A stretch of DNA of 64,000 nt from Candidatus Hydrogenedentota bacterium (GTDB lineage: Bacteria > Hydrogenedentota > Hydrogenedentia > Hydrogenedentales > SLHB01), in assembly GCA_020848835.1 (NCBI GenBank), contig JADLHJ010000084.1, forward strand, positions 86,914 to 150,913. Reading direction: 5' to 3'. A program made the position numbers and the translations under genes. Below the pieces are notes generated by a model, which was not told where the DNA came from, did no database searches, and was given only the letters and a program-made list of their open reading frames with translations. The first letter of the stretch is position 1, and the number at the start of each line of letters is the position of its first letter. This document shows, in pieces, positions 4,043 through 27,780 of the stretch.

Positions 4043-4396
4043 ATGAACTCGCTCAAAAATCTTGCAGACTTGGACGCCTGTCTGAATGAATCCACCACAC
4101 GTCCCGTTTTCATTTTTAAACACAGCACCGCCTGCCCGATATCGTCAGAGGCGTACCGCCAGGTCGCAAAATACACGCAAGCAGCTAACGAAAATGATCC
4201 CAAGGTCTACATGGTTAGAGTAATTGAAGAGCGCCCCGTCTCAAACCAAATCGCCGAAGAACTCGCGCTCCAACACAAATCCCCGCAACTCATCCTCGTA
4301 AAAGACCGCAGTGTCCTTTGGTCTGCTTCGCACTACGGCATCAACGAACAAGCCATCCGCGACGCCGTCTCTGGTCACATCACTGCACGAAATTAG
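4043..4396 (+). CDS. ytxJ: Bacillithiol-system thioredoxin-like protein YtxJ (monothiol bacilliredoxin BrxC family)
   Basis: About 117 aa with the 'TACPIS' motif typical of YtxJ/DUF2847. The start is moved to the internal ATG at 4043 ('MNSLKNL'); the upstream part of the track ORF is intergenic-looking. Confidence 0.6.
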   Translation: MNSLKNLADLDACLNESTTRPVFIFKHSTACPISSEAYRQVAKYTQAANENDPKVYMVRVIEERPVSNQIAEELALQHKSPQLILVKDRSVLWSASHYGINEQAIRDAVSGHITARN

Positions 4397-4401
4397 TAAG
4401 C

Positions 4402-5367
4402 CTATTTGGACTGCGGCGGCGGGTAGACGCCGCTTTGGCTCGCATTTTCTCTCACTATCTGCACATTGCGTTTCAATCCCACCAACTTCCCTCGCATAAT
4501 CGGCGTTCCCGCAAACCACGAAAAGAACTCTGCCTCATCCATTCTTGATACTTCCTCCAGCGACAAATTCGCGTGTCCGTCTCGCGCCAGAAAATCCGTC
4601 TCACTCGTCTCGCGCAACTTCCGGTTCCAGGGGCACACGTCCTGGCACACGTCGCACCCGAACACCCAGTCCCCAAACTTCCCCGCCAACTCCTCCGGCA
4701 CCTCGCCACGGTTCTCGATCGTGTGATACGAAATGCAAAGCTGCGCATCGACAACCTTCGGCTGCACGATTGCCTGCGTCGGGCAGGCATCGATGCACAA
4801 TGTGCACCCGCCGCATTGATCCGGAATGGGGGAGTCCGCCTCAATCCGCGCCGTCGTAATAATCGCCCCAAGAAAAAAATACGAACCAAGATCGCGCCGC
4901 AACACGAGGCTATTCTTTCCAACCCAACCCACACCCGCGCGCTCGGCCCAGGCCTTCTCCATCACTGGCCCGCTGTCGATACAGCAATACGATTCGCTCC
5001 CAGGAACAAGCTCATCCACAGATCGTGCGAGCTTGCGCAACGGCTTCAGCAGTACGCGATGGTAATCGCGTCCCCACGCATACCGCGACACCCGCCCTTC
5101 GTGCTCGCTTTTTGCGGGGCGCGTCGAATAGTAGTTGCGCGCAACGATGATGACCGACTGCGCGCCCGGCAATTTTTTCGCCACGTCCTGCCGCACTTCG
5201 CGGGTCCGCGCCATCCACGCCATCGTCGCGTGATAACCCGCATCCAGCCACGCACCAAGCCGATTGTCCGGATCAATAGCATCATCGGCACGCGCAATGC
5301 CACACGCATCAAATCCCAGCGAGGCAGCAAAGTCTTTAATCGATTTTGACTCAAGCAAAGCAGGCAT
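4402..5367 (-). CDS. queG: Epoxyqueuosine reductase QueG (4Fe-4S, cobalamin-dependent)
   Basis: Two ferredoxin-like Cys clusters 'CGGCTLCIDACP' and 'CDVCQDVCPWN' plus QueG-like N- and C-terminal regions, about 320 aa. Confidence 0.85.
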   Translation of the reverse strand: MPALLESKSIKDFAASLGFDACGIARADDAIDPDNRLGAWLDAGYHATMAWMARTREVRQDVAKKLPGAQSVIIVARNYYSTRPAKSEHEGRVSRYAWGRDYHRVLLKPLRKLARSVDELVPGSESYCCIDSGPVMEKAWAERAGVGWVGKNSLVLRRDLGSYFFLGAIITTARIEADSPIPDQCGGCTLCIDACPTQAIVQPKVVDAQLCISYHTIENRGEVPEELAGKFGDWVFGCDVCQDVCPWNRKLRETSETDFLARDGHANLSLEEVSRMDEAEFFSWFAGTPIMRGKLVGLKRNVQIVRENASQSGVYPPPQSK

Positions 5368-5473
5368 GACTCACCTTGTCATGCGCTTGATGGAAGTGTC
5401 AATACCGGCAGGAAAACAAAGAGCCGAGTTGGAGCTCGGCTCAAAAAATTAGACAACGTGATGGGCGCGAAAA

Positions 5474-6265
5474 TTACGCGGCGCTCGTCCGCTCGCCTTC
5501 TGTATCTGTAGCGGCAGGAGTTTGCGGCATTTGCACCACTTCAGAGCTGCCTTGGCGCCGCGGCTTGTACCAAATCGTATGCGCCGCCTTCTTGCTCGCA
5601 AACATCGCCGAAATCGCCAGCACAGGACGCGTAAACACGCCCCAATCGCCAAACTCGTTGAACTTGCGCGATGACTTTACCAGGTGTGCCGTGCGCAGGT
5701 TCTTGTATTTCAATCCGCGCTTCTTGCCCAAAGCCTGCAAGCGGCGTGCAAAATCGTAATCTTCGGTGCAGAGCAAGTCGGCGTCGAACGCACCCGAAGT
5801 CCAGAATGCCTCCGGTGTCGTATAAAACAGGAACATCGAGATACCCGTGAACGACAATCCCGTCTGCACCAATCCGTGCGTAAATTCGATCCCCCAAGAA
5901 CGGCGATCGTAACGCGTCCTAGCCACACCCCCGCCGATATGTTTGCCGGCCTCCATGACGCGATGAATCTCAACCAGCATATTGCGCGACATGTGATCGT
6001 CCGCATCCACAAACACCAAGTACTTCCCAGTCGCTTGCTCGGCCGCTCGGTTACGGACCACGGAGATGCACCGAATATCGACCGGCACAACCTTGGCCCC
6101 AAGCGATTTGGCTACCGATGCAGTAGCATCAGTACTCACATTGTCGCCAACGATGATTTCTACCGGTTCCCCCAAGGCTTGCTCGGCCTGCCGAATTGCG
6201 GCAATGGTTGCGGGAAGGTACTGCGCTTCGTTGTAGGCAGGGATGATGATGGAAAACGTGTACAG
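5474..6265 (-). CDS. Family 2 glycosyltransferase; true start unresolved (the track ORF starts at a TTG at 6175, but the conserved N-terminus lies upstream)
   Basis: GT2 motifs include 'VFVDADD'. The in-frame upstream translation reads '...GGQVLYTFSIIIPAYNEAQYLPATIAAIRQAEQALGEPVEIIVGDN', i.e. the canonical GT2 beta1 strand and 'PAYNE' motif. These are reachable only from a CTG at 6263-6265, which is preceded by the SD-like 'AGGGGG' 7 nt upstream. No ATG, GTG or TTG occurs between the upstream stop (about 6311) and the TTG at 6175. Confidence 0.5.
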   Translation of the reverse strand: MYTFSIIIPAYNEAQYLPATIAAIRQAEQALGEPVEIIVGDNVSTDATASVAKSLGAKVVPVDIRCISVVRNRAAEQATGKYLVFVDADDHMSRNMLVEIHRVMEAGKHIGGGVARTRYDRRSWGIEFTHGLVQTGLSFTGISMFLFYTTPEAFWTSGAFDADLLCTEDYDFARRLQALGKKRGLKYKNLRTAHLVKSSRKFNEFGDWGVFTRPVLAISAMFASKKAAHTIWYKPRRQGSSEVVQMPQTPAATDTEGERTSAA

Positions 6266-6541
6266 GACTTGGCCCCCTGAGTTGAAACTCCGCGACTGCG
6301 GACTTTTCGGTCACGGTTTACGGCTATTATTACAACCTATTTCGCAATACCTTACGTGAAAGTGCGAGATTGTACGGAATATTTATCAGAGAAACAACGG
6401 ATAAATGGTAGGAAAATACCCACAGTTCCAAAATGGAGCACACTGTGGAAGCAATCACTTTGAGTGCCACTTTGTATATGACAGTTTAAGAGTCGCTCGG
6501 GTTTTGGACTTACCCTATAAAGACAGGAACTAATCACCACT

Positions 6542-7138
6542 ATGCAGTTTGAAGATGCACAGTTGGTGTACCTCTGTCTGGAGGGGGACACCCAAGCCTA
6601 CGGCCGCTTGGTAGAGCACTACCAGGGCGCGGTGTACGCTACCGCGTATTACTACGTCGGCCGGCACGGCGCCGCCGAAGATGTCATGCAGGACTCATTT
6701 TTCGAGGCCTACCGCCACCTTCGCCGGTTGAACGACCCCAGCAAGTTCGGCCCTTGGCTAAAAGAAATCACGTGCCGGACTGCGGCCAACTGGTTGCGCA
6801 AACACGCAAAACGGATCGCCGCCGAAACGCCGCTCCCATACAAGCGGCCCGTAGCAATTGAAGACCACCGGCCCGGACCGGAAAACGTCGCCGAGCGTAG
6901 CGAGTTGTACGAAGGAGTACACCGCGCGATCGAGGCGCTTCCGGAGCGATACCGGCTACCGATCGTGCTCCGCTACTTGCAGGAGCTCAGTTACGAGGAA
7001 ATTAGCGAGTTTACGGGCGAGTCGAAAGACGAAGTCCGCGGCATTCTGCAGTACGCCGTACGCAAGTTGAGAGACAGCTTGATCGCCCAGAGCGACGCAA
7101 ACGAAGGCGGAAAAAATTGGTTTCGTGCACTCGAATAG
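6542..7138 (+). CDS. ECF (sigma-70 family, group IV) RNA polymerase sigma factor
   Basis: Region 2 'VMQDSFFEAYRHL' and region 4 'LSYEEISEFTGESKDEVRGILQYAVRKLR' are present; about 198 aa. Confidence 0.8.
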   Translation: MQFEDAQLVYLCLEGDTQAYGRLVEHYQGAVYATAYYYVGRHGAAEDVMQDSFFEAYRHLRRLNDPSKFGPWLKEITCRTAANWLRKHAKRIAAETPLPYKRPVAIEDHRPGPENVAERSELYEGVHRAIEALPERYRLPIVLRYLQELSYEEISEFTGESKDEVRGILQYAVRKLRDSLIAQSDANEGGKNWFRALE

Positions 7139-8445
7139 AATCGACCCTCCAAGCCTATATCGACGGCGAATTGGGCGATTCCGACCGCGTAATCTTTGAG
7201 CAACACCTCGAAGATTGCGGTGTGTGCCGTGATTCTCTAAAAAAGCAGCAGCGCACCAACGCCATCCTCTTCACCGTGTTTTCCGAAGACCGCCTCAGTC
7301 ACTCGTTGCGTAGCCGGATACTCACGCACCTTCCCTTGATGGAAGTCACGCCGCGCGATTCGGACAGCGTTGTTGACCTCATTAATCAACGCGCCAAGAA
7401 TCCACGCACTTTATGGGGTATCGTCGGCAGACTGATGCCTGTCGCCGCCGCCGCAATTCTCGTATTCGTCGCGCTCATCCTCAATTACAGCTACAACTCC
7501 ACAGACGCGAACGAACTCGCCACCGCAACCAGCGTCGGAATGGTTACGCAGGCACGTGGGTCTACAGACCACGCGCCCGGCAATGGGCCTGAAGTACAAC
7601 CGGCGGAATTGCAGAACTACGTATTGCGCGGCGATCGCTTTGACACGCGTAGCGGCAGCAGCATCATGATCGCGTTAACCGGGCCAACCGCCCTTAAGAT
7701 CGGCGATTCGTCGCGGGTTCTTATAAAGGACGCTCGAGAAATTACGCTCGAATTCGGCCAGATATGGCTGGACGTCAGCCGTGACGGTAGTAAGCTTTTC
7801 AAGGTTCACACGCCGCGCGGCGACGTTACCGTATTTGGCACTTGTTTCGCCGTTTCTCATCTGAACGACGAAACCACCGTTACCGTAGAGCGCGGCGAAG
7901 TGCAGGTTGAAAAGGGCAATGACTTCCGCGCGTTGGAAAGGGGCGAACAGGTCCGCGTGCTGGCAAGCGGTTCGCTTACCGAGCCCTCCTTGGTTGATGC
8001 AAAATCCGTCAATGCCTGGGCTCGACGCATCATGCCCGATCCGTTGTCCGAAAACGCGTTCGCCAAACGTCTCCAAGTGAAGGCACCCTCTGGCGAACTG
8101 CCCGCGCGCTTGGTCTACATGGTCAACACCTACGGTAAAGAAGTGACCGCGCTGCGCCTATATTGGCAACCGCAACCCGGACTAAATGTAACAAGCTATT
8201 GTGCCTACGACCTGTATGTGTCGTCCGAAGCCAGCGGTGCTCCAATCATGCACAAGAAGATTGAAGGAAATCAGTTTAAGGACGCCGAGGGTTTTTCACT
8301 CGATGTCCCTATGGATTCACCGGTGACCGACGCGACTTCGCTGGAAATTCGACTCGTCCCCAACTACTCATCGGGCGGCAGTGAACTTTCGGACGTGGAT
8401 ATCAAATGCGTCGTGCCAGACAAAAAAACAGTTGAACCGTCTTAG
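7117..8445 (+). CDS. Anti-sigma factor with zinc-finger (ZAS-like) N-terminus, a single TM helix, and a FecR-like periplasmic domain plus a C-terminal extension
   Basis: The 'HLEDCGVCRD' zinc motif and a TM helix 'VAAAAILVFVALILNY' are present, as are FecR-like beta-rich segments. The TTG start at 7117 overlaps the sigma gene by 22 nt; there is no internal ATG until far downstream. Confidence 0.6.
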   Translation: MVSCTRIESTLQAYIDGELGDSDRVIFEQHLEDCGVCRDSLKKQQRTNAILFTVFSEDRLSHSLRSRILTHLPLMEVTPRDSDSVVDLINQRAKNPRTLWGIVGRLMPVAAAAILVFVALILNYSYNSTDANELATATSVGMVTQARGSTDHAPGNGPEVQPAELQNYVLRGDRFDTRSGSSIMIALTGPTALKIGDSSRVLIKDAREITLEFGQIWLDVSRDGSKLFKVHTPRGDVTVFGTCFAVSHLNDETTVTVERGEVQVEKGNDFRALERGEQVRVLASGSLTEPSLVDAKSVNAWARRIMPDPLSENAFAKRLQVKAPSGELPARLVYMVNTYGKEVTALRLYWQPQPGLNVTSYCAYDLYVSSEASGAPIMHKKIEGNQFKDAEGFSLDVPMDSPVTDATSLEIRLVPNYSSGGSELSDVDIKCVVPDKKTVEPS

Positions 8446-8475
8446 TCCATGTCGTTCGGGACGATGTGGATGCTG

Positions 8476-8650
8476 CTCAGGTCGGAGAGGCGAGTGATAG
8501 AGGCCTTACGTTACAAGTCTACCTCAAGTCACTCCTTCCCCAAGAGTAACTGCAGCCAGGAAGCTTCGGTCGCTCGCCTCTCCGCTGACTTAAGTAGAAG
8601 ACTTTCGATTCGGGGATCGGAAAAGAGAGAACGCTTCGGGGCGTTCAAAA
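8476..8650 (+). other. Cluster of strong inverted repeats (candidate structured RNA or terminator region) just after the anti-sigma gene
   Basis: Arms 'CGGAGAGGCGAG' (about 8483-8494) and 'CTCGCCTCTCCG' (about 8573-8584) pair for 12 bp. A 'GAACGC-TTCGGG-GCGTTC' hairpin lies at about 8625-8642. Further TGTCT/AGACA and AGACAGTAG/CTACTGTCT palindromes occur at 8674-8741. Confidence 0.35.
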
Positions 8651-9134
8651 CGTGAAGAAGGAAAAGAACTGTCTATCTGCGAGACAAAACGAACGCCACA
8701 CAAAAATAAGAGACAGTAGCCGTCGGGGTCGACTACTGTCTACCTGCACAGGCTCAGCCACACAATACGAATTGACTGCTCGGTAAGTCGATCCGTACGC
8801 TTTACCTGCGCCCAGATTGTAACATGCAAATGTATGTTCTGCAAATGCTGAAAACCATTCAGCGTGTCAATTGTCTTTTTCCCCGAATTCCACTCTGAAA
8901 TCTTCCCTTTTCAGAAAAACCGCCTCGTCTACTGTCGGCTCCAATACTGTACCCACGGAAAGACTCGATGAATCCCTTTCTCAATTATCACAACTTAGAA
9001 TGCACTTAAGTCCTTTATTTAATGTTATTTACAAACTCGCGTCGCGTTTGTGGAGGGCAGGTGTCGCTGCAATTGACGATAGAAAAGTGCGTAACGTGAA
9101 GAGCGAAAATTTGAAACCCATTCGCATTAGCCGC

Positions 9135-9163
9135 TTGACACAAAGTTAGATTATCCGTACAAT
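9135..9163 (+). promoter_or_regulatory. Near-consensus sigma-70 promoter (TTGACA-17 nt-TACAAT) upstream of the dtxR/mntR-like gene
   Basis: TTGACA at 9135-9140, a 17-nt spacer, TACAAT at 9158-9163, then an SD 'GAGG' and the ATG at 9193. The -10 region is embedded in an imperfect dyad 'TTAGATTATCCGTACAATCTTAG'. Confidence 0.4.
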
Positions 9164-9192
9164 CTTAGTAATGTCTGCTGAGGTAAACGACC

Positions 9193-9633
9193 ATGACTGC
9201 AACCATGCTCGAAGGACCTGTAAGCGCCAGTGCGCAGGACTATTTAGAAGCAATCTTCCGAATCACCACACGTAACCGCGTGGCCCGCTCCCGCGATATT
9301 GCTCAAGCCCTCGGCGTGACAAAATCCTCCGTTACTACAGCCCTCAAACAACTCAGTGCATCCGGTCTTGTGAACTACGATCCGTATTCCTATGTGACAT
9401 TGACCCGCGAAGGCGAGCAGATCGGCCGTTCTGTCGAAGCACGTCATCGTTTTTTAGCAGAGTTTCTTGAATCCATTCTCGGTGTAGCCGCTGATCGCGC
9501 CGACCAAAATGCGTGCCGCATGGAACACGTTCTGGACGATGAAGTCTACAAACGTCTTACTGAATTCGCTGCCTACCTGAAACAAAACAGTATCAACGCA
9601 TCCACCTGGAAACAGGAAGAGGAAAACAAATGA
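9193..9633 (+). CDS. mntR: DtxR/MntR-family metal-dependent transcriptional repressor
   Basis: 146 aa with an N-terminal winged HTH 'SRDIAQALGVTKSSVTTALKQL', a metal-binding/dimerisation region 'RHRFLAEFL...CRMEHVLDDEV', and a 4-nt ATGA overlap with the next gene. Confidence 0.8.
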   Translation: MTATMLEGPVSASAQDYLEAIFRITTRNRVARSRDIAQALGVTKSSVTTALKQLSASGLVNYDPYSYVTLTREGEQIGRSVEARHRFLAEFLESILGVAADRADQNACRMEHVLDDEVYKRLTEFAAYLKQNSINASTWKQEEENK

Positions 9634-10589
9634 AGACTCTTTCCTTTAGGCTATTGATGGCAACTGTCGTTGCTACTGCGTTGATTGCGATTGGCTGCGA
9701 CAACGCCCCCGCAAGCGACGGCGCGAAAGCCAACACATCCAAAGTCCGCACAGGCCCGCTCAAGATCACGTGCACGATTGGAATGATCACGGATGTTGCC
9801 AAAACTATCGCCGGTCCTCACGCGGAAGTCATCGGTCTCATGGGCCCCGGCGTTGACCCGCACCTCTACAAAGCTACGCAAGGCGACCTCGAACGCCTCT
9901 CCAGCGCCGATCTCATCCTCTACAACGGCCTTCACCTCGAAGGGAAAATGGCAGACGTGCTCGTAAAAATGGCGCGTTCAGTGCATACCGTACAAGTCAC
10001 AGAATCGATTCCGGAAGATCAACTTCGCGAACCCTCTGAGTTCCAGGGCCAACACGACCCGCACGTGTGGTTCGACGTCATGCTCTGGTCGCACGCCGCC
10101 GAACGCATTCGCGACGCGCTCATCGAAGCTGACCCGGCGCACAAAGCCGACTTCGAAAAGAACGCAACAGACTATCTCGCGAAGCTCAAGGATACCGACG
10201 CCTACGTGCGTGAACGCATCGCCGAGATCCCAAAAGAGCAGCGCGTCCTCGTCACCGCCCACGACGCCTTCGGCTACTTCGGCCGCGCCTACGACATCGA
10301 GGTCATGGGCCTGCAAGGAATCAGCACCGCCGCCGAATACGGCGCGCAAGACCTCACGCGCCTCGTCGATGTCATTGTCCAACGCAAGATCAAAGCGGTC
10401 TTCGTCGAGTCATCCATCTCGCCGAAATCGATCGAGGCCCTCGTCCGTGGCGTCGAAGGCAAAGGCGGCAACGTGAAGATCGGCGGCCAACTCTACAGCG
10501 ATGCCATGGGTGCGGACGGCACGCCCGAGGGCACCTACATCGGCATGGTCCGCAAGAACGCCGACACCATTGCGGACGCGTTGAAATAA
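9630..10589 (+). CDS. Metal (Mn/Zn/Fe) ABC transporter substrate-binding lipoprotein (TroA/MntC/ZnuA cluster 9 family)
   Basis: Signal peptide with lipobox 'LIAIGC', plus 'DPHVWFD' and 'AHDAFGYF' motifs typical of TroA-like SBPs. Confidence 0.85.
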
Positions 10590-10591
10590 CC

Positions 10592-11377
10592 ATGACCGAC
10601 ACAACAAAACCCGTCCCGATTGAAGTACACGATCTCACGGTCGCCTACCGGCACCGCCCCGTGCTCTGGGACGTCGACGTAAAATTCCCCGAAGGCAACC
10701 TCATCGCGATCTGCGGCCCCAACGGCGCCGGCAAGAGCACGCTTATCAAAGCGATCCTCGGCCTCGTTCCGCTGGCATCGGGCAACGTCACCATCTTCGG
10801 TAAACCCGCTAACGGCGTGCGCAAACTAGTGGCCTACGTCCCGCAACGCGAATCCGTCGATTGGGATTTCCCGACCACCGCGCTTGACGTCGTACTCATG
10901 GGACGCTATGGCCACCTGCCGCTCTTCGGGCGTCCCCGCAAACGCGACAAGGAAATCGCACGGCACTGTCTCGACAAAGTTGGCATGCTCGAATTTGCCA
11001 ACCGCCAGATCAGCCAGCTCTCCGGCGGCCAGCAACAACGTGTCTTCCTGGCGCGCGCACTCGCGCAACAGACCCGTGTGTACCTCATGGACGAACCCTT
11101 CGCTGGTGTCGATGCTGCAACGGAAAAAGCGATCGTCACGTTGCTTCGCGAACTCCGCGAACAAGGTTGCACAGTCGCGGTTGTGCACCATGATCTTCAA
11201 TCGGTTCCCGAGTATTTCGATTCCGTCATGCTCCTCAACCTGCGCATGATCGCGTTTGGTCCCGTCGAAACGACATTCACAACCGAGAACCTCAACAAGA
11301 CCTACGGAGGCCGCCTAAACCTACTGACCGAAGTGGGGGAGAAGCTCCGCAAGCAACAGTGGAACGCGCGAGGATGA
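10592..11377 (+). CDS. Metal ABC transporter ATP-binding protein (MntB/TroB/ZnuC-like)
   Basis: Walker A 'GPNGAGKST', signature 'LSGGQQQR' and Walker B 'YLMDEP'. Confidence 0.85.
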
Positions 11378-12729
11378 ACACCGCCGGCGCAATACTCGCA
11401 TCCGCACCCGCCGCGCTCCCGCCGTGGCTGGACTTCTTCACCTTTCGCGATACAAACATCCGGCTCATTTTCGCGGGCTGCGTCTTGCTTGGCTTGACGT
11501 CCGGCGTAATTGGTTGCTTCGCGCTCCTGCGCAAACGCGCGCTACTGGGCGATGCGCTAGCGCACTCCGCGCTGCCGGGCGTGTGCGTCGCGTTTATCCT
11601 TACCGGCACAAAGAACCCCGTTGTTATCCTCGCAGGCGCAACCATCTCCTGCTGGATCGGCGCAATTACCATCGATTTGATATCGCGCTACACGCGCGTC
11701 AAATCCGAAAGCGCTCTAGGCATGGTGCTCTCAGTATTCTTTGGACTCGGTATCCTCCTACTCACCTACATCCAAAAAAGCGGCAACGCCGCACAAGCAG
11801 GCCTCGACAAATTTTTATTCGGTCAGGCATCCTCCATGCTTGATCGCGATGTGTGGACACTCGCCATAGCGGGCCTACTTATGCTCGCTGCGGTGGCGCT
11901 GGCCTACAAAGAATTCAAACTCGTATCCTTCGATCCCGGTTTCGCATTCTCCATAGGCCTGTCCACGCGCGTCATCGAAACCGCGCTCGCCACACTCACT
12001 GTTCTCGCCGTTGCAATTGGGCTACAAGCAGTCGGTGTAGTACTGATGGCGGCAATGCTCGTCACGCCCGCGGCGTCCGCACGGTATTGGACAGACAATC
12101 TCGGCAAGATGATTATACTCTCCGGTGCATTCGGCGCGATCGCAGGCGCCATCGGCACCTACATCAGCTACCTCGGCCCGCGCATGCCCACGGGCCCGTG
12201 GATGGTCGTAGCCGCAACTGTCGTCTTCACAGTTTCGCTGCTCTTTGCGCCGCGCCGCGGAATGCTCGCGCACATGCTTCAACTCCGCCGCATCCGCCGG
12301 AAGACCACCGAAGAAAACATCATTCGCACGCTCTACGTCTTGGGCGAACGCCACAACGACATGACGAAGACCAGCTCCATTGCGACGCTGCTCGAATTTC
12401 GTTCGATGAACACGATGACTGCGGAACGCACGCTAGATCGCCTCATCGCGCGTGGCCTCGTTCAGGAGCCCGCGGAAGGAATGTTCGCGCTAACGCCGGA
12501 AGGCGTAGCCCGTGGCGCGCGCCTCACGCGCCTGCACCGCTTGTGGGAGGTCTATCTCACGCGAAAACTCGAACTCGCGCCCGATCACGTCCACGACGAC
12601 GCCGAGGAAATCGAGCACATCATTACGCCCGAGCTCGAAGCGCGCCTCGTCGCTTCACTCAACGATCCCGGTGAAGACCCCCATGCGCAACGCATCCCGC
12701 CCGCGCTCGAACCAGGCAGAGCAATATGA
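11374..12729 (+). CDS. Metal ABC transporter permease fused to a C-terminal DtxR-like repressor domain (YtgC-YtgR-like)
   Basis: About 290 aa of TroC/MntC-like polytopic permease is followed, without a stop, by about 150 aa of winged HTH plus a DtxR metal-binding region ('[42 protein letters not shown]'). The likely ATG at 11374 makes an ATGA overlap with the ATPase stop. Confidence 0.75.
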
Positions 12730-13613
12730 GCAACGATCTCTGGATTATACTCATCGGTTCGCTTGCGTCCGCGGCCTGCGCGCTCGTCGGATGTTTCCTC
12801 GTACTGCGCAAACAAGCGATGATGGGCGATGCAATTAGCCATTCCGTACTCCCCGGAATCGTCATCGCATTCTTGATCACGCAAAGCCGCGCGCCAATTC
12901 CCATGCTCATCGGCGCAGGTACGCTCGGCATTCTCACCGCGTTCGCCACCAACGCACTCGAACGCCACGGCAGACTCCAGCCCGATGCCTCCATCGGCGT
13001 CACCTTCACCTGGCTATTCGCCGTCGGCGTGATACTCATCTCCGCATTTGCCGGTCACGTTGACCTCGACGCCGAATGTGTCCTCTACGGCGAAATCGCG
13101 TCTTCGCCTTGGGACGTTTGGCTTATCGGCGACACCGACATGGGCCCGCGCGCCGTCTGGATCCTGGGCGCAATCACCATCGCAAATCTTATCTTCGTGA
13201 CCCTCGGATACAAACAACTCAAGCTCACTTCATTCGATCCCGAAATGGCCGCCGCCCTCGGCATCAACGTCACCCTGTGGCACTACCTTCTCATGGGCTT
13301 CGTGTCATTCACCACCGTCGGCGCATTCGAAAGCGTCGGCGCGATTCTCGTCGTCGCCATGCTCATCGTCCCGCCCAACACCGCTTATCTTCTCACTGAC
13401 CGCCTCTCCCGCATGCTGATCTACTCCGTCATCATCGGCATCCTCAGCGCCATCGGCGGCTACTGGCTCGCATGGCTCATCGACGGTTCTATCGCAGGCG
13501 CCATCGCAACGGTAAGCGGCGCACTCTTCCTCTTCGCCGCACTCTTTTCACCCACACACGGCGTCATCGCAGGTTATATAGCCCGCCGCCACGCGCTAAT
13601 CACCCCTGATTAA
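12726..13613 (+). CDS. Metal ABC transporter permease (TroD/MntD-like)
   Basis: Polytopic membrane protein of the ABC-3 family, 295 aa, with an ATGA overlap with the preceding gene. Confidence 0.85.
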   Translation: MSNDLWIILIGSLASAACALVGCFLVLRKQAMMGDAISHSVLPGIVIAFLITQSRAPIPMLIGAGTLGILTAFATNALERHGRLQPDASIGVTFTWLFAVGVILISAFAGHVDLDAECVLYGEIASSPWDVWLIGDTDMGPRAVWILGAITIANLIFVTLGYKQLKLTSFDPEMAAALGINVTLWHYLLMGFVSFTTVGAFESVGAILVVAMLIVPPNTAYLLTDRLSRMLIYSVIIGILSAIGGYWLAWLIDGSIAGAIATVSGALFLFAALFSPTHGVIAGYIARRHALITPD

Positions 13614-14065: not shown

Positions 14066-16105
14066 ATGCTGTCCCGTTCTGTTTCTGCTCTATTCGCATT
14101 CCTACTTATCGCTACTTTGTCATCCGCGCAAGATATCCCCGATTCCGTCCGCTCCGCAGTCGATGTGTCGATCGCAAAAGTGAAGCCCGCGCTCGTTCGC
14201 ATCGGCGTCGTGTGGACAGACTACAACGAAGGCCGTGAAGAAAAATACGAAGCCAGCGGTAGCGGCACGATCATCACCGGTGAAGGCCACGTCGTTACCA
14301 ACCATCATGTCGCGGGCCATGCCACGCGCATGTTCTGCACTCTCGCTACGAAAGAAGTGATCGAAGCCGACCTTATCGGCAAAGACCCGCAAACCGACAT
14401 AGCCATCATCAAACTTCGCGGCGAACCCGGCCGCATCTTTCCGACTGCGGAGTTCGGTGACTCCGCCGAACTCAACGTCGGCGACATTGTCCTTGCAATG
14501 GGCAGTCCGCTGTCGCTCTCGCAAAGTGTGACGCAAGGCATTGTCAGCAACACCGAACTCGTCTTTCCTTCGCGACGCTTCGGCTCGCTCACCCTCGACG
14601 GTGAGGACGTAGGATCTCTCGTACGCTGGATCGGTCACGACGCGCCAATCTATCCCGGCAACTCCGGCGGCCCGCTCGTGAATCTGCGCGGCCAAATCAT
14701 CGGCGTCAACGAAATCAGCATCGGCCTCGGCGGCGCAATCCCCGGCAACACCGCGAAAGACGTCGCGCGCAAGCTCATTGCAAGCGCTACCGTCGATCGC
14801 GCATGGCTCGGCCTTTCGCTCCAGCCCCAACTTAAATCGCACCTGCATTCGCGTGGCGTGCTCGTGCGCAACGCAATCGCGGGTTCACCCGCGGACGCCG
14901 CCGGATTCAAAGCAGGTGATCTGCTGCTAAACATCGGCGGCCAGGACATCAACGTGCGCTTCGAGGAGCAGATGCCCTTGCTCAACGGCACCATCGCCGC
15001 ATTGCCTATCGACAAGCCAGTCGATGCAATCGTTCTACGCGACGGCAAAGAGCAAACCATCACCGTCACACCGAAACGCTACGAAGAAGTCGAGCCCCAA
15101 CAAGACGAAATAAAAGAGTGGGGGATGACCGTCCGTAACGTCTCCTTCGTCAATTCCCGCGAAATGAAACGCGACACCACAGACGGCGTACTCGTCACTT
15201 CAGTTCGCCCCGGCGGCCCCACTGGCACGGCAAAGCCGGAGATTAACCGCCAGGACGTCATCGTCGCCGTGAACGGACAGCCCGTTAAAAACATGGACGA
15301 ACTGATTGCCTTCACGACAACGCTCCTGAAAGATCAGAAAGACCCAGTACCCGTGCTCGTTGAGTTCGAGCGCAAGGTCGCACGACTGCAGACGGTCGTA
15401 AAAGTCGGCATCGCTGAACCGCCCGCGCCCGGCAAAGATGTAGAAAAAGCCTGGCTCGCAGTCGATACCCAAGTCATCACGCGTGACGTTGCGAATCAAA
15501 TCGGCAATCCCGATCTCAAAGGTTTCCGCATCACGCAGGTTTATCCCGGCACAACCGCCGAAACAGCGGGCCTGAAAGTGGGCGACTTAATCTATGCAGT
15601 CGATGGAGAACCGCTTGAAGCGGCCGCTCCAGAAGACTACGAAGAGCTCGCCGCACTCGTGCGTCAATACAAGATCGGCACTAAAGCCGAGTTCAGCGTA
15701 CTGCGCGGTACGGAGAAGACGACGATTCCCGTCGAACTCACCGCGTCGCCACGGGCCACGCGCGAAATGAAGGAGTACGAAGACATCGACTTCGAGTTCA
15801 AAGTCCGCGATATCACCTTCATAGATAAAGTGAAGGAGAAATGGCCGGCGGACAAGGCCGGCGCGCTCGTCTCCAAAATCGAACCCGGCGGTTGGGCCGC
15901 AGTCGCCAACATGGACACCGGCGATCTCATCGTTAAGATCGATTCGACGCCAATAATGAATGTGGATGGCGTCGAGAACAAGATGAAAGAACTCAAAGAC
16001 GCAAAGGCCAAGAACGCGGTGTTCCAGGTCGAACGCGGCATCTACACCATGTTCCTCGAATTTGAACCCAAGTGGGACGCAACGCCCGCTGCTGGAAAGG
16101 AATAA
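14066..16105 (+). CDS. htrA: HtrA/DegP/DegQ-family periplasmic serine endoprotease with multiple PDZ domains
   Basis: Signal peptide, catalytic His in 'GHVVTNHHV', Asp in 'DIAIIK' and Ser in 'GNSGGPLVN'; about 679 aa, with a long PDZ-containing C-terminus. Confidence 0.85.
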   Translation: MLSRSVSALFAFLLIATLSSAQDIPDSVRSAVDVSIAKVKPALVRIGVVWTDYNEGREEKYEASGSGTIITGEGHVVTNHHVAGHATRMFCTLATKEVIEADLIGKDPQTDIAIIKLRGEPGRIFPTAEFGDSAELNVGDIVLAMGSPLSLSQSVTQGIVSNTELVFPSRRFGSLTLDGEDVGSLVRWIGHDAPIYPGNSGGPLVNLRGQIIGVNEISIGLGGAIPGNTAKDVARKLIASATVDRAWLGLSLQPQLKSHLHSRGVLVRNAIAGSPADAAGFKAGDLLLNIGGQDINVRFEEQMPLLNGTIAALPIDKPVDAIVLRDGKEQTITVTPKRYEEVEPQQDEIKEWGMTVRNVSFVNSREMKRDTTDGVLVTSVRPGGPTGTAKPEINRQDVIVAVNGQPVKNMDELIAFTTTLLKDQKDPVPVLVEFERKVARLQTVVKVGIAEPPAPGKDVEKAWLAVDTQVITRDVANQIGNPDLKGFRITQVYPGTTAETAGLKVGDLIYAVDGEPLEAAAPEDYEELAALVRQYKIGTKAEFSVLRGTEKTTIPVELTASPRATREMKEYEDIDFEFKVRDITFIDKVKEKWPADKAGALVSKIEPGGWAAVANMDTGDLIVKIDSTPIMNVDGVENKMKELKDAKAKNAVFQVERGIYTMFLEFEPKWDATPAAGKE

Positions 16106-27704: not shown

Positions 27705-27780
27705 GCGGGATTAACTCAGTTGGTAGAGTGCCAGCTTCCCAAGCTGGATGTCGCGGGTTCGAACCCCGTATCCCGCTCCA
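27705..27780 (+). tRNA. tRNA-Gly (anticodon CCC), with encoded CCA
   Basis: 76 nt cloverleaf: acceptor GCGGGAT/ATCCCGC, D-arm 'CTCAGTTGGTAGAG', anticodon loop 'CTTCCCAAG', T-arm 'GCGGGTTCGAACCCCGT'. It is nearly identical in architecture to canonical tRNA-Gly(GCC) except for the anticodon. Confidence 0.9.

Follow-up and report, generated by a model that had tools for sequence, protein, structure and literature searches.

The stretch of DNA analysed here (64,000 nt, referred to below as the window) lies on contig JADLHJ010000084.1 of an assembly from a Candidatus Hydrogenedentota bacterium (GCA_020848835.1). Between positions 9135 and 13613, it carries five tightly coupled open reading frames (ORFs), all on the + strand. 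According to Pfam and NCBIfam, these encode, in this order, an MntR-like regulator, a TroA-type substrate-binding protein, an ATPase, a permease fused in frame to a DtxR-family domain, and a second permease (Table 1). The gene order and coordinates agree with those of a preliminary description of the same DNA. The coupling that it reported was also recovered when the junctions were read in the sequence: ATGA overlaps occur at 9630, 11374 and 12726, and a single 2-nt gap (TAA-CC-ATG, 10590-10591) separates the binding-protein gene from the ATPase gene. The 456 amino acids (aa) quoted for the fusion protein must, however, be corrected. The very coordinates given for it correspond to 451 aa from ATG 11374, a start backed by homologues and by gene calls in relatives; 456 aa would be obtained from the upstream GTG 11359.

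The preliminary description of the operon as a metal ATP-binding cassette (ABC) importer is sustained by matches to ZnuA, to ABC_tran and, for both permeases, to ABC-3. The binding protein aligns with Treponema pallidum TroA (1toa/1k0f; 291 bits, E 7e-86) across the DPH, DPHVW, AHDAF and SDAMG motifs, and its residues H78, H145, H211 and D291 fall within these aligned ligand motifs. His/His/His/Asp are the metal ligands of TroA in the 1TOA structure. Both the sequence match and the ligand positions place the protein in the TroA-type cluster A-I; it is probably a lipoprotein, as suggested by its IAIGC signal (Cys23). For the ATPase, the NCBIfam model that scores highest (261.9 bits) describes ATP-binding proteins of manganese/iron ABC transporters. 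In an AlphaFold model of the fusion protein (alignment of 109 homologues, mean pLDDT 85), the permease part superposes on PsaC of PsaBC (7kyp) with a TM-score of 0.89 on the target and an rmsd of 2.5 A. The same five-gene operon recurs in independent assemblies. Judged from its gene content, the locus is predicted to encode an importer of the troABCD/ytgABCD type, through which a Hydrogenedentota-like bacterium would take up divalent Mn, Fe and/or Zn.

The fusion of the first permease to a DtxR-family domain is genuine. The permease/DtxR junction is in frame, with neither stop nor frameshift, in the window, as the preliminary description had stated, and in 85 of the 85 related loci; four loci initially scored as out of frame proved to be BLAST end-extension artefacts containing no real stop. 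The same 451-aa protein, 95% identical to that of the window, is found on contigs of three different sequencing runs, and a version with 83% identity occurs in the same five-gene operon, between the same flanking genes, in the Hydrogenedentes metagenome-assembled genome (MAG) GCA_013359265.1. The ratio of non-synonymous to synonymous substitution rates (dN/dS) against the 95% relative is 0.015 for the permease, 0.09 for the winged helix and 0.028 for the metal/dimer region. Against the 83% relative the values are 0.06, 0.27 and 0.016, respectively, and are rough because dS is near saturation. Over the whole fused domain, dN/dS amounts to 0.06-0.14. An artefact of assembly or annotation, or the decaying remnant of a regulator gene deprived of its start, is thus extremely improbable, and we set this explanation aside in view of the recurrence in assemblies, the in-frame junctions and the low dN/dS. 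No evidence in its favour was found, apart from one long-read contig, L085 (373 kb). At positions 4112-6718 of this contig, a permease of 289 aa and a DtxR-like protein of 135 aa are separate ORFs 20 nt apart, followed by a gene of the '23S rRNA IVP' family. This arrangement is either a natural unfused variant or the result of long-read indel errors. The second permease of L085 is itself split into 72 + 215 aa, which suggests sequencing indels.

Table 1. Features of the importer operon and of its upstream region (window coordinates; aa positions are those of the encoded protein)
Feature	Coordinates	Strand	Basis and remarks
Conserved promoter/operator block	9125..9168	+	44 bp, ATTAGC..CTTGACACAAAGTTAGATTnnnCGTACAATCTTAG invariant, flanks scrambled
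Sigma-70-type promoter	9135..9163	+	TTGACA 9135-9140, 17-nt spacer, TACAAT 9158-9163; 11/12 matches
Candidate operator, 22-bp imperfect dyad TTAGATT-N8-AATCTTA	9146..9167	+	overlaps -10 box
Standalone DtxR-family regulator	9193..9633	+	146 aa; PF01325 54.6 bits, PF02742 62.7 bits
TroA-type cluster A-I substrate-binding protein	9630..10589	+	319 aa; ZnuA 1.2e-84
ABC ATPase, TroB/MntA-like	10592..11377	+	261 aa; ABC_tran 7.9e-30
Permease-DtxR fusion ORF	11374..12729	+	451 aa from ATG 11374
Fusion: permease domain, ABC-3/TroC/PsaC-like	11374..12258	+	aa 1-295; ABC-3 8e-67 over aa 32-291
Fusion: basic linker	12259..12312	+	aa 296-313; predicted helix, conservation among homologues
Fusion: helix 1 and divergent winged helix-turn-helix	12313..12492	+	aa 314-373; alignments, fold match
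Fusion: metal-binding/dimerisation part	12493..12708	+	aa 374-445; Fe_dep_repr_C 1.7e-22 over aa 374-442
Second permease, ABC-3/TroD-like, without extra domain	12726..13613	+	295 aa; ABC-3 2.8e-52

The two halves of the fusion protein are joined by a short linker in which G296, R300, R306 and T311 are conserved among the 109 homologues. The AlphaFold model predicts a single continuous helix (297-326) running from just past the last transmembrane helix into the DtxR-like helix 1. An internal translation start for the DtxR-like part was considered at Met296 and Met300 and rejected, these residues not being kept in homologues. Two promoter-like internal matches at 12088-12119 are at chance level in the promoter scan.

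The fused domain itself is covered by NCBIfam MntR/DtxR models spanning aa 314-446, and the two motifs quoted in the preliminary description are present (HRLWEVYL from aa 388, the second one from aa 405). Alignment places N315, R318, H388, E392, H407, E411, E414 and H415 at the positions of DtxR M10, R13, H79, E83, H98, C102, E105 and H106, respectively; N315 also aligns with MntR Asp8. Among the homologues, H388, E392, H407, E411, E414, H415 and the D435-P-H437 motif are invariant or nearly so, and the ligand signature is identical across 85 of the 85 fused domains. Except for Asn instead of Asp at the first position, this set is that of the Mn-responsive ScaR, SloR, DR2539 and Mycobacterium tuberculosis MntR. 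Because the fused domain stops just after the D-P-H motif, it has no third domain (SH3/FeoA) of its own. In the AlphaFold model, its C-terminal fold matches those of the two-domain repressors DR2539, IdeR and DtxR, the best match being DNA-bound DR2539 (8pw0; TM-score 0.87, rmsd 1.8 A). Since no ligand of the Mn/Fe-type set is missing and the dimerisation helix is kept, the fused domain is predicted to bind metal.

The other DtxR-family protein of the operon is the soluble one at its head. Its assignment to the DtxR/MntR family, already made in the preliminary description, is upheld by both Pfam models, which score above their cut-offs (Fe_dep_repress 1.3e-14, Fe_dep_repr_C 3.2e-17). The protein aligns end to end with Bacillus subtilis MntR, and also with DR2539; it has the canonical recognition helix TKSSVTTALKQL. 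Its predicted ligands, taken from alignment columns, are D16, E19, H85, C108, E111 and H112. C108 stands at the position of MntR Glu99, which is that of Cys102 in the iron-responsive DtxR, suggesting a hybrid Mn/Fe-type site. Scores against the MntR equivalogs NF003025 and NF008273 (82.6 and 87.4 bits) stay below the cut-offs of 138 and 153. Given these scores and Cys108, the protein is better called MntR-like than a confirmed MntR. The standalone and fused domains are about 30% identical over 98 residues, and their ligand sets differ (D/E/H/C/E/H in the former, N/H/E/H/E/E/H plus D-P-H in the latter). On this comparison, the two sensors probably respond to different metals or to different thresholds.

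Upstream of the standalone gene, a sigma-70-type promoter is the best match in the 5.8 kb scanned, and the start of the locus in the preliminary description (9135) coincides with its -35 hexamer. When the window is aligned with the 95% and 83% relatives, the promoter/operator block (Table 1) is the sole one kept in about 300 bp upstream of the regulator gene. Within it lies the candidate operator, of which the three central bases vary between relatives. A second copy was sought in the 64-kb window and none was found, 0 being expected by chance for the full block. In Bacteroidota loci, a palindrome, TTAGATTAATCTAA, with the same TTAGAT/ATCTAA half-sites and a 2-bp centre, is located 10-40 bp upstream of the standalone regulator gene. 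Near-perfect versions precede the regulator in L023, L028, L034, L045, L049, L056, L061, L064 and L073. In Pontibacter, the related TTAGACGAATCTAA (for example L018 2259, L039 2295 and L080 2377) is found at a distance larger by about 1.1 kb, suggesting that the operon begins with an additional gene there. The spacing of the half-sites follows the type of standalone regulator, N2 with three-domain proteins and N8 with MntR-like ones, while the fused domain is orthologous throughout. Moreover, the half-sites are common to phyla whose standalone regulators share the canonical helix, and the helix of the fused domain is not the same in these phyla. Such correlations are evidence that the soluble regulator may be the protein that reads the operator of the operon.

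The promoter block is embedded in a 747-bp gene-free spacer (window 8446-9192), where the GC content of the window is at its lowest (0.51 over 8001-10000, about 0.57 elsewhere). Apart from the block, this spacer is unconserved in relatives. A 92-aa TTG ORF at 8871-9149 looks spurious, and an Rfam search of the spacer for an Mn riboswitch or other RNA family returned none. Two close Hydrogenedentota relatives, L007 (~4070-4095) and L009 (~4075-4100), have in common the element TTTTAGG[T/C]ATGCTTCAAAAT, just upstream of a TTGCGC...TATAGT promoter that precedes the binding-protein gene. This element is possibly a different operator.

How widely the architecture occurs was assessed in two ways. 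In a genome scan with one genome per species, at least 564 genomes matched; the best 80 loci were examined, and the fusion was present in all of them. When 1.84 billion cluster representatives were searched with the junction and regulator domain, 1052 matches were obtained at E <= 1e-10; among the top 150, the majority have a length of about 420-460 aa and a C-terminal match. Short matches to the fused-type domain alone, in this second search, were contig-edge fragments or ambiguous. The named closest relatives of the window locus are Candidatus Hydrogenedentes/Hydrogenedentota, assigned to the FCB group in the NCBI taxonomy. Most of the other fusion loci retrieved come from Bacteroidota and related FCB-group lineages, including the cultured Bacteroidota genera Pontibacter, Ekhidna, Reichenbachiella and Ohtaekwangia. 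The fusion was also found in Sumerlaeota, Armatimonadota, Chlorobiota/Ignavibacteria and Balneolales/Rhodothermaceae (Rhodothermota), as well as in some MAGs labelled Nitrospirales or Proteobacteria. As cited in a review, permease-repressor fusions had already been seen in 11 phyla (Thompson et al., 2012, in PMC5599777). The architecture is therefore already known, and it is no marker of PVC-like ancestry, as had been proposed for this locus. The statement that it is characterised essentially only in Chlamydia is upheld: in our literature searches, experimental study was limited to Chlamydia.

The pairing of the fusion with a second regulator, pointed out in the preliminary description, is not special to this locus and turns out to be the usual arrangement. 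A standalone DtxR-family gene lies upstream of the binding-protein gene, on the same strand, in 58 of the 68 loci with sufficient upstream DNA. Two types of partner were distinguished. In the sub-clade of the window and in L003, it is a MntR-like protein of 146-176 aa with a Cys-containing site. Elsewhere, the partner is TroR/ScaR-like: it has three domains, including a FeoA/SH3 one, is about 215 aa long and shows the same ligand signature as the fused domain. In L003, the 176-aa MntR-like gene (8434-8964, Cys site NEACRLEH) is found downstream of the second permease, that is, in the position of troR and not at the operon head. No description of the paired arrangement, fusion plus standalone regulator, was found in the literature searched. 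The preliminary description is thus right on the architecture and wrong on both phylogeny and uniqueness. Taken literally, it would combine the two regulators into a switch made of a membrane-tethered and a soluble repressor, peculiar to the lineage and indicative of PVC-like ancestry. Both regulators are indeed present with different ligand sets, and membrane-tethered action has been raised as a possibility for YtgC (PMC5599777). However, the phylogenetic part is refuted by the membership of Hydrogenedentota in the FCB group, the arrangement is widespread, and a tethered domain could dimerise only if two transporter complexes were involved. In this full form, the idea appears improbable to us; two-tier control as such is a reasonable hypothesis.

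The following scheme can be proposed. A single strong sigma-70 promoter would transcribe all five genes, so that both DtxR-family sensors would be made from the same transcript. Since the dyad operator overlaps the -10 box, the operon would be shut off when metal is sufficient. The soluble MntR-like protein, with its canonical helix, would be the main binder of the candidate operator. The second sensor would be the YtgR-like domain, which a short basic helix connects to the first permease at its cytoplasmic end. By analogy with Chlamydia, where cleavage of the fused domain and DNA binding have been described (PMC5599777, PMC7755916), this domain would be released by proteolysis, dimerise in a metal-dependent manner and repress. 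Release appears the simplest route because dimers are the active form in the DtxR family and the domain is present on just one of the two permeases. With modest confidence, we therefore favour the reading of the locus as a tro/ytg importer that may be repressed at one promoter by a metal-loaded soluble regulator, acting as main binder, together with a released, formerly fused second sensor. Gene content, domain identities, ligand conservation, the promoter footprint and the distribution across genomes are established by the analysis; the operator-binding protein, the cleavage and the metal specificity are what we infer in this scheme.

Several observations weigh against this proposal. Some of them concern the DNA-binding head of the fused domain. 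Of the Pfam models, ABC-3 and Fe_dep_repr_C score above threshold on the fusion protein, whereas PF01325 reaches 14.7 bits for a cut-off of 26, and this model is sub-threshold or undetected in fused domains. The winged helix-turn-helix claimed in the preliminary description is hence seen through the NCBIfam alignment and the predicted fold, and not through Pfam, which recovers the metal region. The recognition helix is non-canonical, without the P-[AS]-S-V-T-x-M-x-x-K-L motif, and is preceded by a 3-4 residue insertion and an invariant Arg (R343). Over the same 58 loci, mean pairwise identity in the metal/dimerisation region is as high for the fused domain as for the standalone protein (0.74 vs 0.72). 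It is far lower in the helix-turn-helix (0.33 vs 0.57) and in the recognition helix (0.35 vs 0.64). This low conservation could mean that the fused domain no longer reads a conserved operator. A more canonical helix was sought in the fused domains of loci without an adjacent regulator and was not found.

These features would also fit the main competing explanation, in which the fused domain is not a transcription factor here but a metal sensor tethered to the transporter, acting by trans-inhibition or membrane signalling, while the standalone protein alone represses. The occurrence of the standalone gene beside the fusion in several phyla would fit with this explanation, as would an operator spacing that tracks the standalone type and the short rigid helix predicted for the linker. 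Nevertheless, a pure gating domain would be expected to lose its winged helix somewhere, whereas the fold is kept in 85 of 85 fused domains, is basic, has the invariant Arg343 and is under purifying selection. We therefore consider, on comparative grounds, that the winged helix is not decaying and that the fused domain most likely still binds DNA. Only one such domain is present per heterodimeric transporter, and no case is known to us in which an ABC importer is gated by a DtxR-type domain. Finally, Chlamydia YtgR binds DNA and represses (PMC5599777, PMC6504234). Altogether, a tethered sensor is possible but rather unlikely. It can be extended to the view that, in the FCB group and neighbouring phyla, the two proteins form an obligate sensor pair. 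In such a pair, the soluble member would read the operator and the fused one, with an intact metal site and its canonical DNA-reading helix given up, would act at the transporter, gating import or reporting flux on the cytoplasmic side, and the Chlamydia repressor would be a derived form, having arisen after loss of the soluble partner. We regard this extension as unlikely and put it forward as a speculation.

The remaining points against release and joint repression concern the linker, the operator and the gene set. Among the 109 homologues, neither a conserved cleavage motif, which the preliminary description had suggested looking for, nor a conserved internal Met or start codon was recognised in the linker. 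Experimental evidence of cleavage, of iron dependence and of DNA binding comes from the Chlamydia member alone, and the selection estimates from the 83% relative carry the roughness mentioned above. The dyad arms are short, with 5 perfectly complementary bases each, and the operator is assigned to the standalone protein by correlation only. Moreover, the close Hydrogenedentota relatives L007 and L009 have the same neighbours and no adjacent standalone gene. The operon can apparently run without an adjacent regulator, or with one encoded elsewhere, and the regulator at the operon head would be either a lineage-specific gain or a gene lost in those relatives.

The genes around the operon were also inspected. 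Two overlapping genes lie directly upstream (window 6542-8445, + strand), one for an ECF sigma factor of 198 aa, the other for an anti-sigma-like protein of 442 aa with a FecR domain. This pair is syntenic with the transporter operon in the Hydrogenedentota relatives L007, L009, L081 and L084; in L007 and L009, where the regulator gene is absent, it is immediately adjacent to the gene of the binding protein. About 450 bp downstream of the operon (window 14066-16105, + strand), a HtrA/DegQ-like serine protease of 679 aa with several PDZ domains is encoded. Its position is kept in the Hydrogenedentota relatives L001, L007, L010 and L081-L084 and not in other phyla. Because the synteny is confined to these relatives, there is no general link between the fusion and the protease, which was rejected as a conserved partner or candidate cleaving enzyme. 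A single tRNA gene (window 27705-27777, + strand) is the sole Rfam match in the whole window at gathering thresholds.

These loci are of interest because the one permease-repressor fusion studied so far belongs to an obligate intracellular pathogen, in which manipulation is difficult. Free-living bacteria, cultured genera among them, carry this architecture in abundance and thereby offer tractable systems. These free-living carriers usually add a second, soluble DtxR-family regulator and a recognisable operator. The window locus is a further, uncharacterised example of a known architecture. New here are the full set of metal ligands in a fused domain whose helix-turn-helix is divergent and faster-evolving, the canonical helix and hybrid ligand set of the standalone regulator, and the conserved dyad over the -10 box. 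The comparative results, namely the paired regulators, the divergent DNA-reading head of the fused domain and the shared operator half-sites, provide useful leads. This raises the questions of why a sensor is tethered to its own importer, of whether its release is needed and of how two ligand sets divide the work. If the fused domain proved to gate the importer, trans-inhibition of an ABC importer by a DtxR-type module would be seen for the first time. The current annotation as 'metal ABC transporter permease' hides the regulator domain.

The closest known system is YtgC-YtgR of Chlamydia trachomatis (YtgCR, CT069), which likewise consists of an ABC-3 permease and an in-frame C-terminal DtxR-family domain. 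This likeness, drawn from the architecture and from published descriptions, agrees with the YtgCR-like character first ascribed to the locus. In YtgABCD too, the fusion has as its partners a cluster A-I binding protein, an ATPase and another permease that is plain, and the metal-ligand residues of the DtxR family are conserved in YtgCR as in the fused domain here. However, the Chlamydia operon is without a separate DtxR-family gene, whereas the present one has such a gene at its head, and Chlamydia is an obligate intracellular pathogen whereas the window organism is a free-living member of the FCB group. In addition, the WWW tryptophan motif is absent from the window protein, so that the tryptophan-attenuation layer described in Chlamydia (PMC7755916) does not apply.

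The troABCDR operons of T. pallidum and Treponema denticola similarly combine two ABC-3 permeases with a DtxR-family regulator, and T. pallidum TroA is a close homologue of the binding protein, with all four ligands. As at the present locus, a dyad operator lies on or close to the -10 box of their sigma-70 promoter (PMC2628430); the likeness of the two operators is one of position. In tro, the regulator is encoded on its own by the last gene and both permeases are unfused, whereas here one regulator comes first and the other is fused to the TroC-like permease.

Among solved structures, the best sequence match of both regulators is Deinococcus radiodurans DR2539 (8pvt, 8pw0; E 2e-16 and 2e-17), a Mn-dependent two-domain protein aligned over its DNA-binding and dimerisation domains. 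It shares with the fused domain the H/E/H/E/E/H ligands and the DPH motif. DR2539 is soluble, has Asp at the position of the fused Asn315 and possesses a canonical recognition helix; the fused domain differs in all three respects. For the standalone protein, the comparison with B. subtilis MntR shows equivalents of D8, E11, H77, E102 and H103, with Glu99 replaced by Cys108 and a score (87 bits) below the 153-bit cut-off. Finally, the permease fold is matched by PsaBCA of Streptococcus pneumoniae (PsaBC 7kyp/7kyo; 30% identity). Unlike the present fusion permease, PsaC forms a homodimer and has no regulatory domain, and PsaR, the regulator of PsaBCA, is encoded by a separate gene.

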